Under the pieces are notes generated by a model that was given only the letters and a program-made list of their open reading frames with translations, searched no databases and was not told where the DNA came from. From a plasmid, in the sequence record CP089609.1: 64,000 nt of DNA. One strand, given 5' to 3'. Below, piece after piece: positions 6,608 to 9,420 of the stretch; position 1 is the stretch's first letter; each line of letters opens with the position of its first letter. Made by a program: the position numbers and the translations under genes.

Positions 6608-6730
6608 AACGGTCCCCTCACACGAGCACTGGCCACCCCAGAAACGGCACGCCAGCCGGTGTAGGGTACTCAGCTGTCGTTTCTGTAGTTCGATCTAGTA
6701 CGAATAAGATTTGTTTAGTACGATGATGGC

Positions 6731-7135
6731 GTGGAGAGGCGCTTGACTCGCATCCAGCCTTGCGCGGTGTGTTCTGCAGCGGTTCGCGTTCCTGCTGGTT
6801 CTGATGAGGAGTACGAATTGGTGCTGCCGTCGCAGCCGCCTGCAGTCCGGCGCCGAGGGAACGTTGTCAGGGTGGTTGGCCCATATCCGTGTTACCTGGT
6901 TTGCGATGCCTGCGCGGCAAGGCTTTTGGGGCCGCGCACCGGCGGGAAAGTATCGAACCCGGCGGGAGTGATGGATGCGCTGCGTGAACGCTATGGCGAC
7001 GGCTACGCCTCCTGGATCTCGCCAGGGGCACTGCCGGCCATGCTGGACGACGCGGCCGAGTACCTGAGTAGCAGTGAGGCCCGGGGTGGGGTGGACTTCG
7101 GCACCTGGCAGAAGATGCGCGAGCTTCAGCGGTGA
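6731..7135 (+). CDS. IS-associated small Cys-rich protein (CAVC...CYLVCDAC), translationally coupled to tnpA
   Basis: GTG start; stop overlaps tnpA start (GTGA); conserved inside both IS copies. Confidence 0.55.
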   Translation: MERRLTRIQPCAVCSAAVRVPAGSDEEYELVLPSQPPAVRRRGNVVRVVGPYPCYLVCDACAARLLGPRTGGKVSNPAGVMDALRERYGDGYASWISPGALPAMLDDAAEYLSSSEARGGVDFGTWQKMRELQR

Positions 7136-7722
7136 ATTTGAAGGATTGGGCGCTGGCGCAGGGCATCCACCCGCAGACGGCATACAAGATGTTCCGCGAC
7201 GGAACGTTGCCAGTTCCTGCGCAACGGGTAGGGCCGCGGCTGATCCTGGTGAACCCTGAAGGCGTCGCGGCGACGCCAACCGAGGGCGTTGGGCTCTACG
7301 CCCGGGTCTCCTCACACGACCAGAAGGACGATCTGGCACGGCAGACAGCCAGGCTCAACGCGTGGGCTGTGCAGGCCGGCCATCGTGTTGTCCGCAGTGA
7401 AGCCGAGGTGGGTTCGGGGATGAACGGTGCGCGGGCAAAGGCGCGCCGACTGTTGTCGGACCCCGAGGTTACGGTCGTGGTCGTGGAGCACCGCGACCGG
7501 CTCGGGCGGATGAATACCGAACTTGTGGAGGCGGCGCTGTCGGCGTCCGGTCGTCGTCTGGTGGTGCTCGATGACGGCGAAGTCGACGACGATCTGGTGC
7601 GCGACATCACCGAGGTGCTGACGTCGTTCTGTGCCCGACTGTACGGCCGCCGCTCAGCCAAGAATCGAGCCAAGCGGGCGTTGGAGTGTGCGGCCGGGTC
7701 TGATGGTGGCACGTCGGCGTGA
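7132..7722 (+). CDS. tnpA: IS607-family TnpA, serine recombinase/resolvase-type transposase
   Basis: 196 aa; N-terminal MerR-like HTH (MNLKDWALAQGIHPQTAYKMFRDG) and resolvase catalytic core (YARVSSHDQ); resembles IS1535/IS1536-type TnpA. Confidence 0.85.
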   Translation: MNLKDWALAQGIHPQTAYKMFRDGTLPVPAQRVGPRLILVNPEGVAATPTEGVGLYARVSSHDQKDDLARQTARLNAWAVQAGHRVVRSEAEVGSGMNGARAKARRLLSDPEVTVVVVEHRDRLGRMNTELVEAALSASGRRLVVLDDGEVDDDLVRDITEVLTSFCARLYGRRSAKNRAKRALECAAGSDGGTSA

Positions 7723-9310
7723 ATGCTCTGGCACGCAACACGTCCGGGCTGCGGCCGATCGCCGACCCGTTCGTTGTCGCGCCCCGAAAGGTGTGCGGAC
7801 CCGCACCCGGGTCCATCTCACACCGCGGGAAGAGGCGGTGCTCGAACAGATCGGCGTGTTCTTAGGTGAGCAGTACCGGGCCACTTTGGTTGATCGGATC
7901 GCGCTGGGGGCAGCCACGAAGAAAGACCAGGGCGTGTGGCGGCAGGTGCGTAAGCAGGCCCTCACCGCGAGCACGTCATCGCGGTGGGCCGGAGCGATCA
8001 CCCGCACCGCTATCGACTCCTACGACTTGGGCATGCGCGGGCTGAACGCTCACGTCGACTCGTTGACCGCCGCGGTCTCGACCTTGAGCGCCCGGCTAGC
8101 CGTACCTGTGGGTGACACGTCGCGCGAGGCGAATCGTCCCCGCACCAAGCCGGTTCGGGGCTATGCGACCGAGGCAGAGCGGTTTGGCAAGTCGCGCCGC
8201 AAGGCCCACCTAGAAGCGCGTCTGGCGCAAGCCTGGGCCCGTCAGGAGCAGGGGCGGCCCCGCATCGTTGTTGGTGGTGGCCGGTTGTGGCGCAACCGTC
8301 AGAATCTTGGCGAGACGTCGATGACTCTTGCTCAGTGGGAGAAGCGCTGGACTGAGGAGCGGATGTTCCTGACCGCTGATGGGGAGTCCGGCAAGCGTTT
8401 TGGCAACGAGACCATCCGTGTCACCGATGAGGGCGTACTCATGCTCAAGGTGCCCGGAGCCTTGGTGGCCGAGCACGGGACGACCCGGCTCACGATTACC
8501 GCACCGGTATCCCTGAACACCCATCGCGGTGGTGAGTGGGCTGATCGGATCGTCGCCGACCGGGCCGTACGGTACGACCTACACCGCGACCCGCGGGGAC
8601 GCTGGTACCTCGACGCGTCCTGGGGCTACGCCCAGGCCCCCGCCGTGCCGTTGGCCTCGCTGCGCACCCAGCGCACGCTCGGCGTGGATCTCAACGACGG
8701 GCACATCGATGTCGCCGTGGTTGATCCACACGGCAACGTCATCGGCATTCCCCAGCGGCTGGAGTTCACCCTCACCGGTGGCACCGCCCGCCGCGACGCC
8801 CAAGTCCGCCACGTCATCACTCGCCTGATCCGCCTGGCCACCGAGCATGGCTGCGCATCGATCAGCATCGAGAACCTCGGATTCGACGAGGCCCGCAACA
8901 CTGGCCGGGAAACCATGGGCCGCGGCCGGCGAGGCAAACGGTTCCGCCGCACCGTCGCGGGCATTCCGACCGCCACATTTCGCAATCGGCTCGCCGCGAT
9001 GGCGGCCACCGCTGGGCTGTCGGTGATCGCTGTCGACCCTGCCTACACCTCCCGATGGGGACGCCAGCATTGGCTACCCGCACTGCAGACTTCCGACCCG
9101 ACCATCGACGGCCACCGCGCCGCCGCGGTTGTGATCGGCAGGAGAAGCCTCGGCCACCGCGCCCGGCGCAAGCCTGTCGGACCCGTCACGCGACAGAGGA
9201 CGCGCGACGGCCAGCCGGCCAGGCCAGCCACACGGCGACCGACGCCTTCTCGCTCGCGTGTCACCGCAACGCCGAAGGCGCACGACGCCGCAGGCCCACC
9301 GGACCGATAG
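7719..9310 (+). CDS. tnpB: IS607-family TnpB (OrfB_IS605, RuvC-like RNA-guided nuclease family). N-terminus is out of frame relative to copy 2 because of a 1-nt shorter C-run near 7785; an in-frame GTG lies at 7790
   Basis: GTG overlapping the tnpA stop; about 95% identical to the copy-2 protein starting MNALARNTSGLRP; the long ORF in the track begins at 7631. Confidence 0.8.
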
Positions 9311-9420
9311 AACACACGCCAGCGTCGCCAACACCGTTCGGGCGGCAGAGCACCCGGAGACGAGCCCCAAACTCACTCCCGCTCACTCAACAGGAACGGT
9401 CATGTCCCAGATGCAGCCGC
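9160..9420 (+). ncRNA. candidate TnpB-associated omega/right-end RNA overlapping the tnpB 3' end and IS right end
   Basis: inferred from the known IS605/IS607 TnpB arrangement; no structure verified. Confidence 0.2.

Follow-up and report, generated by a model that had tools for sequence, protein, structure and literature searches.

Insertion sequences (IS) of the IS607 family have been described as elements encoding two proteins, TnpA and TnpB (PMC6188088; PMC13565253). TnpA alone suffices for IS607 transposition and its dimer is chemically inactive until it is switched on; the elements insert at GG without target duplication, and GG termini together with (G)GG targets represent the signature of IS607 transposition (PMC6188088). 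In the left end (LE) of IS1535, four 9-bp helically phased repeats at bp 20–60 nucleate TnpA filaments, and the right end (RE) of this element contains two motifs between bp 10 and 28 (PMC6188088). Occasional extra genes in TnpB transposons have been mentioned in general terms, without describing a zinc-ribbon family (PMC10691335). Small regulators encoded within an IS are known from other families, since Arc represses the promoter of IS605 elements and Orf121 inhibits IS91 (bioRxiv 10.64898/2026.09.24.754181). In this study, we analyzed a stretch of 64,000 nucleotides of plasmid DNA (CP089609.1; hereafter the window), which carries two inverted copies of an IS607-type element with a third gene, located upstream of tnpA and predicted to encode a small zinc-ribbon protein.

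Judged by its gene content and its ends, this element is a three-gene, active-type insertion sequence of the IS607 family, encoding one protein more than the two usually described. It was kept in this family because the number of genes is a descriptive and not a mechanistic family feature. With IS1535 and IS607 it shares a serine TnpA whose DNA-binding domain is N-terminal, the absence of terminal inverted repeats and of a target duplication, GG termini, (G)GG targets, a downstream tnpB, LE repeats with a phasing of about 10 bp located 20–60 bp from the tip, and two RE repeats within bp 10–28 (PMC6188088). It differs in the third gene between LE repeats and tnpA, in its size of 2.73 kb, and in a finger-less TnpB with an Asp-to-His exchange. 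The original prediction had assumed that standard IS607 elements encode TnpA and TnpB only; this is the textbook view (PMC6188088; PMC13565253), which needs some qualification, as extra genes in TnpB transposons had already been mentioned in general terms (PMC10691335). In full-text literature searches, the scope of which did not include ISfinder, no zinc-ribbon gene was found to have been described for elements of the IS607 family. The small protein occurred exclusively within transposons of this type and therefore probably represents a helper or regulator of this kind of transposition that has not been described before.

Boundaries, copies and ends of the element

To define the boundaries, eight insertion sites were aligned, namely those of the two window copies, one of Mycobacteroides abscessus, four sites of one metagenome and one of a further sample. 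The left edge of similarity was found where (G)GG is followed by T(A/T/G)C..., corresponding to window position 6667, and the right edge after ...CAACAGGAACGG (...AACGG, then N), corresponding to window position 9399. At all eight left junctions, (G)GG precedes the first shared base, which in copy A places the target or crossover dinucleotide GG at 6665–6666. The flanking DNA was unrelated at all eight sites. Thus, all eight junction pairs display insertion at (G)GG without target-site duplication and without terminal inverted repeats, the element ends not being inverted copies of each other. Copy A thereby extends from 6667 to 9399 (2,733 bp, + strand), so that its left end lies about 20 nt further out than in the original prediction, which had proposed 6686–9402. 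Because the DNA common to the eight insertions begins 64 nt before the start of the small open reading frame (ORF), this ORF belongs to the mobile unit, as had been proposed: all eight copies end about 64 nt upstream of the ORF and never between the ORF and tnpA. The small ORF, tnpA and tnpB move as one unit (6667–9399).

By looking up contigs encoding homologues of the small protein, the same three-gene block was found at different loci of other genomes. It occurs in M. abscessus GCA_015023615, as an identical element at four different sites in the metagenome ERZ25072670, and as a further copy in sample SRR1791747, where it adjoins genes for type VII secretion and conjugation. Such recurrence at unrelated sites in other genomes is far beyond chance. 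No phage matches were found. The only plasmid match was a 5′-truncated copy on M. abscessus plasmid pGD21-2 (L009; NZ_CP065286.1, 52793–54552; retrieved loci are given here by number), which keeps the last 27 tnpA codons, tnpB and the right end and adjoins two tyrosine recombinase genes and a small ORF; in total, matches were found at four places of pGD21-2.

The central gene of the element, tnpA (7132–7722, + strand), encodes a protein of 196 aa, which matches the IS607-family serine transposase model NF033518 with 179.4 bits over residues 4–179. With a cut-off of 110 bits, its earlier assignment as an IS607-type serine recombinase was clearly borne out. The catalytic Resolvase domain (Pfam) covers residues 55–183, behind an N-terminal DNA-binding region.

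Copy B is inverted relative to copy A (57367–60093, − strand) and comprises tnpB (57456–59045), tnpA (59042–59632) and the accessory ORF (59629–60029). The inverted repeat arms (6664–9401 and 57365–60096) are 94–95% identical, with about 48 kb between the copies. A patch of 700 nt (7782–8481 in copy A, 58282–58981 in copy B) is 100% identical, and since it stands amid 94–95% identity, recent gene conversion between the two inverted copies is suggested by the sequences. Each window copy carries one lesion. In copy B, a 4-bp deletion matching 6767–6770 puts the first 12 codons of the small ORF, including the CAVC motif, out of frame; this loss of a CxxC motif bears neither for nor against any of the explanations discussed below. 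In copy A, the tnpB frame is interrupted by a −1 frameshift in a run of C residues at 7782–7785 (four C versus five in copy B), located after codon 22. At the matching position, L002, L004, L008 and a two-gene sister element (L020) keep the reading APPKG or APPRG, and the lesion of copy A reflects either decay of the gene to a pseudogene or a sequencing error in the homopolymer.

According to the junction alignments, the LE of copy A has a length of 64 bp (6667–6730, + strand) and a G+C content of 39% in an element with 66.6% G+C. It contains TAGTWCGA repeats at 6686, 6696 and 6716, i.e. in 10-bp phasing at LE bp 20, 30 and 50. In the window, TAGTWCGA has seven matches versus 0.87 expected, five of them in the two LEs, and the LE of L004 exhibits the same repeat phasing. 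By position and spacing, these repeats match the layout of the TnpA-binding repeats of IS1535. At the RE, two CTCACTC repeats (9372–9378 and 9382–9388; RE bp 12–28, 10 bp apart) are followed by the terminal AACGG. In the three-gene element of the window, the LE repeats TAGTWCGA and the RE repeats CTCACTC (GAGTGAG on the complementary strand) do not evidently belong to one motif. Unlike this element, the two-gene sister and an element of the L023 type, both described below, have similar motifs at both of their own ends. A function of the small protein as left-end adaptor, which would explain the motif mismatch between LE and RE, is weakened by the L023-type element, which has matching motifs yet carries the small gene.

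The small gene and its product

The accessory gene (6731–7135, + strand) encodes a protein of 134 aa with a predicted basic Cys4 zinc ribbon at the N-terminus and an acidic helical C-terminal half. Its ORF starts 64 nt inside the left end of the element, after the phased subterminal repeats. The original prediction had attributed about 45 bp plus the 134-aa ORF to both copies; the ORF region is indeed present in both, while the upstream element DNA amounts to 64 bp and an intact ORF exists only in copy A. In this copy, the CAVC and CYLVCDAC motifs that had been pointed out are present in the ORF. Also as described before, the TGA of the small ORF (7133–7135) overlaps the GTG of tnpA (7132–7134) as GTGA, and this junction was read in both window copies. 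The tnpA stop and the tnpB GTG overlap in the same way, again in both copies.

Gene overlaps in line with the assumed coupling to tnpA were also found at other loci. At the junctions read at sequence level (window and L023), the genes overlap by 1–8 nt; in L023, the overlap is 8 nt between the small gene and tnpA (ATGGGTGA) and 1 nt between the small gene and tnpB (TAATG). For L002, L004–L008 and L012, a 4-nt overlap of small ORF and tnpA is implied by the called gene coordinates.

The sequence TACGAT (6719–6724), a −10-like hexamer of the TANNNT type, is located 6 nt before the GTG of the small ORF and inside the last TnpA-type repeat. In every lineage examined, a TANNNT hexamer stands six nt before the start codon of the first gene of the element; in the sister element and L023 this first gene is tnpA, and in most lineages it is the small ORF. 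This is the geometry of leaderless mycobacterial transcripts. From the TANNNT spacing we infer a −10 role of the hexamer and transcription of the operon from an LE promoter as leaderless mRNA. As no obvious Shine-Dalgarno sequence precedes tnpA in the junction sequence, translation of tnpA probably requires ribosomes to reinitiate once they have passed the small ORF.

In most database entries, the start of the protein is set 30 codons too far downstream, which results in 104 aa, and the protein is named hypothetical. In every intact locus, the frame is open to a stop codon inside the last LE repeat, and it encodes the conserved sequence (T/S)RIQPC(A/S)VC...GSDEEY. By an annotation that is 30 codons too short, half of the putative zinc site is removed. 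The residues C11, C14, C58 and C61 are invariant across the full-length homologues, including a member with 54% identity, and C54 is not invariant. Over the whole length of the small ORF, the ratio of non-synonymous to synonymous substitution rates (dN/dS) is 0.16–0.35 for diverged pairs and 0.47 for the near-identical pair of window copy A and L008; over the first 30 codons, pairwise ratios range from 0.08 to 0.48. For comparison, pairwise dN/dS is 0.06–0.17 for tnpA and 0.18–0.36 for tnpB. Judged by these ratios, the small ORF encodes a protein under purifying selection.

As had been proposed, the structure of the 134-aa protein alone was predicted. With an alignment containing full-length and distant homologues, AlphaFold (AF2) gave a model with a predicted local distance difference test score (pLDDT) of 85.6 and a predicted template modelling score (pTM) of 0.74, while an earlier run without these homologues had reached a pLDDT of 59. 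In the model, N-terminal beta-hairpins with two CxxC knuckles are followed by a helical C-terminal domain, and C11/C14 and C58/C61 are located in loops after the strands E5–10 and E54–56. The N-terminal half has an isoelectric point (pI) of 9.3, and the C-terminal half, which is rich in invariant aromatic residues, has a pI of 4.6. Searches of sequence profiles of Pfam, NCBIfam, PHROGs, PADLOC and the PDB gave no significant match to the small protein, and zinc-ribbon models of S27e and YjdM were matched weakly and from single family members only. A Foldseek search against viral models revealed no relative (E at least 0.49). Thus, the small protein represents an unannotated family without detectable sequence or structural relatives.

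These data bear on two explanations which do not require a function of the protein within the element. One of them is that the ORF belongs to the flanking host DNA or is spurious, to which the 104-aa version annotated by gene callers, the designation as hypothetical in databases and the drop of identity between the window copies to only 77% over the first 100 nt could point. This is refuted by the eight shared insertion ends, the coding constraint and the constant co-occurrence with tnpA, and its probability is negligible. According to the other, the ORF is a cis-acting upstream ORF which gates TnpA translation by termination-reinitiation and has an incidental product. The GTGA overlap, the missing Shine-Dalgarno sequence before tnpA and the sister element, in which tnpA itself takes the first, probably leaderless, position, would be compatible with this. 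We consider it very improbable, since it does not explain the purifying selection on amino acids, the invariant Cys and aromatic residues and the confident predicted fold; moreover, the gene is located downstream of tnpA in another lineage and cannot gate TnpA translation there. A programmed frameshift fusing the small ORF to TnpA was rejected, as CTTCAGCGGTGA offers no slippery heptamer and a fusion is incompatible with the other gene order.

Distribution and possible role of the small protein

Among 1.84 billion representatives, homologues of the small protein formed 24 clusters at 90% identity and about six genuine clusters at 50%, and the family is restricted to mycobacteria-like hosts. 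Additional proteins from the profile search (P0030, P0031) were discarded as spurious, because they are HEAT-repeat/Ig-repeat proteins in which a short NPxxVxDAL helix was matched many times. Scans of species-representative genomes and of metagenomes yielded only one and two loci, respectively. The 16 locus records with the gene represent at least 11 distinct sites. In all of them, the immediate neighbour of the gene is an IS607 tnpA, and tnpB follows where the contig continues; in the retrieved loci, the small gene was never found outside an IS607 unit. Three arrangements were observed. In the window, the order small gene-tnpA-tnpB is combined with a finger-less TnpB, and in L012 the same order is combined with a canonical TnpB of 495 aa, in which the CxxC...CxxC finger and the catalytic Asp are kept (L012 and L013 are the same site, and no boundaries could be set for this lineage). 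In L023, the order is tnpA-small gene-tnpB with a canonical TnpB of 462 aa (Pfam OrfB_IS605 and TNB).

A close sister element (L017–L020) has no small ORF. Its TnpA is 83% and its TnpB 78% identical to that of the window element, its RE is identical (...CTCACTCAACAGGAACGG), and it is inserted at GG at no fewer than four different sites. The sister tnpA starts 70 nt from a different LE, whose (A/G)AGTGAG-type repeats are similar to the RE of the sister. Because this close and evidently mobile element does without the small gene, the latter is accessory and dispensable. We also rejected the possibility that LE, small ORF and the DNA-binding domain of TnpA were recently swapped as a module into the backbone of the sister, as a sliding comparison gave about 58–87% identity throughout without a breakpoint. 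When the window is compared with L012, identity amounts to 56% for the small proteins, 39% for the TnpA proteins and about 30% for the TnpB proteins, and within one lineage the small protein evolves faster than TnpA. Since the small protein is more similar across lineages than TnpA and TnpB, the comparison suggests that the small gene moved between IS607 lineages with different left-end motifs.

Such an exchange would be easier if the target of the protein were located outside the element, and it leads to a competing explanation, in which the gene is cargo and the zinc-ribbon protein acts on the host or on competitors, e.g. by counteracting defence or repair or by addiction, and not on TnpA or the element DNA. 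The exchange concerns TnpA proteins with 39% identity and different TnpB clades. The absence of the gene from the close, evidently mobile sister and the tiny family in mycobacteria-like hosts, which fits a host-specific target, agree with a cargo role, and additional genes without a known function are on record for TnpB transposons (PMC10691335). Against it stands the position of the gene, which is embedded in the tnpA-tnpB operon in all three arrangements and even sandwiched in one of them, together with the overlaps of stop and start codons at the loci listed above, whereas cargo usually forms a separate cassette. In addition, PADLOC gave no match, and the gene did not occur outside IS607 units. 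Overall, we regard cargo as unlikely. Of the three roles originally proposed, namely an accessory or directionality factor of the recombinase, a targeting subunit and a passenger gene, a dedicated accessory role is favoured over a random passenger.

A further candidate partner is TnpB. The tnpB gene of the window (7719–9310, + strand; GTG overlapping the tnpA stop, frame of copy A interrupted) encodes a finger-less protein with weak matches to known models (NF040570, 34.8 bits with a cut-off of 100, E 1e-8; Pfam TNB, 18.4 bits with a cut-off of 26.3). In 63 homologues, D323, E384 and H465 show no variation; the last of these stands at the position of the canonical RuvC-III Asp. Between RuvC-II and RuvC-III, no Cys pairs of a four-cysteine (C4) finger were found, unlike in the TnpB of L012. 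TnpB proteins of clade RIIIr-4 retain the RuvC-I Asp and the RuvC-II Glu, carry a conserved His instead of the RuvC-III Asp and have no C4 finger, and they are thought to remain active (PMC10691335). By these sequence features, as well as by the association with a serine-recombinase TnpA, the window TnpB matches this published clade. More than 5,776 homologues of the window TnpB were found, which are largely from Actinomycetota, many of them solo, with no Pfam hit on record.

The small protein could act together with TnpB or with the guide RNA of TnpB, for instance by supplying a zinc finger in trans or by regulating RNA-guided homing. The lacking C4 finger and the His in place of the RuvC-III Asp would fit, as would the TAATG junction, which couples the small gene directly to tnpB in one arrangement, and the small ribbon-helix-helix (RHH) or MazE-like proteins reported together with RIIIr-4 TnpBs (PMC10691335). 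The partner found here differs from those, as it is a zinc-ribbon protein which also accompanies canonical, finger-bearing TnpBs (L012, L023). Owing to the latter observation, a zinc finger supplied in trans for the finger-less TnpB was rejected. Furthermore, more than 5,776 finger-less homologues face 24 clusters of the small protein, and because these thousands of homologues, the sister and solo copies lack the gene, the finger-less TnpB does not depend on the small protein. We therefore rate a role as TnpB or guide-RNA partner as improbable.

The explanation to which we give preference, with somewhat more confidence than doubt, is that the element uses the small protein which it encodes to modulate TnpA activity or expression from the left end; this would make the protein a functional counterpart of Arc and Orf121. 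In this mechanism, the LE promoter would yield a leaderless operon mRNA, and by translational coupling the zinc-ribbon protein would be made together with TnpA. The acidic, aromatic-rich helical domain could bind TnpA, and the basic zinc ribbon could bind left-end DNA; either binding mode would tune the assembly of the paired-end complex or repress the LE promoter. The small protein would act on the element itself as a dispensable modulator. Like it, Arc (RHH) of IS605 and Orf121 of IS91 are small accessory proteins encoded inside an IS by genes overlapping or coupled to tnpA. Neither of the two is needed for the transposition chemistry itself, and both regulate negatively, so that a modulator role may be assigned to the window protein by analogy. 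The folds are unrelated (here a predicted Cys4 zinc ribbon plus helices), and the transposase is a serine recombinase instead of a Y1 or HUH enzyme. There was no Pfam RHH match in the small protein and its predicted fold is a zinc ribbon plus helices, so the likeness to Arc is one of role only.

Three observations weigh against such a modulator. The whole protein is only weakly basic (pI 8.3). A consensus scan found no sigma-70 promoter, and the leaderless promoter is proposed from the conserved TANNNT spacing only. Finally, an exchange of the gene between lineages fits poorly with a sequence-specific LE binder or a co-evolved partner of TnpA.

Recombination directionality factors (RDFs) are small, fast-evolving proteins without a common fold, which bind a serine recombinase and change its action. 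Their targets are large serine integrases with defined att sites, whereas IS607 TnpA alone performs both excision and insertion; by analogy, the small protein may nevertheless be compared with them. A more far-reaching version of the preferred explanation is that the small protein is the first known dedicated protein partner of an IS607-type serine transposase, portable, with a novel fold, binding a conserved part of TnpA and controlling the activation of the paired-end complex. At present, we consider this version possible but rather doubtful. If true, such a partner would set directionality, timing or target choice and would be exchanged between IS607 lineages.

The 3′ region, the DNA between the copies and implications

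The last 250 nt of the element, comprising the 3′ region and the RE (9150–9399, + strand), were compared between the window, L002, L004, L008, L014, L015 and L020. Even between elements with protein differences of 10–25%, the region is nearly identical, and it is far more conserved than the proteins; the conservation extends even to a solo copy with 53% identity. RNAalifold predicted a consensus structure with 60 pairs, 10 of them with compensatory changes, which ends at AGGAACGG. No Rfam family matches the region. Based on conservation and predicted folding, it is a candidate guide-RNA scaffold.

The segment between the copies (9400–57366, about 48 kb) is bracketed by the inverted elements, and recombination between them could invert it. 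It exhibits only patchy similarity to mycobacterial plasmids and encodes, among others, a cytochrome P450, a ThiF/nitroreductase (Rv1355c-like) protein and a 392-aa Lsr2-domain protein (45570–46748). A separate canonical TnpB of 388 aa with HTH_OrfB_IS605, OrfB_IS605 and TNB domains is encoded at 37975–39141 (− strand). Two direct repeats of about 230 nt (27543–27769 and 33521–33756) are 79–81% identical and 5.98 kb apart.

The three-gene elements reside in Mycobacteroides abscessus and in mycobacterial plasmid-like DNA, where inverted copies such as A and B can drive inversions and gene conversion. The two-gene sister element offers a ready-made control for the role of the small gene. With regard to the family, a small conserved protein that is specific to the element and presumably produced along with TnpA suggests itself as a candidate for a missing layer of regulation, and it may offer access to the question of how serine transposases are controlled.

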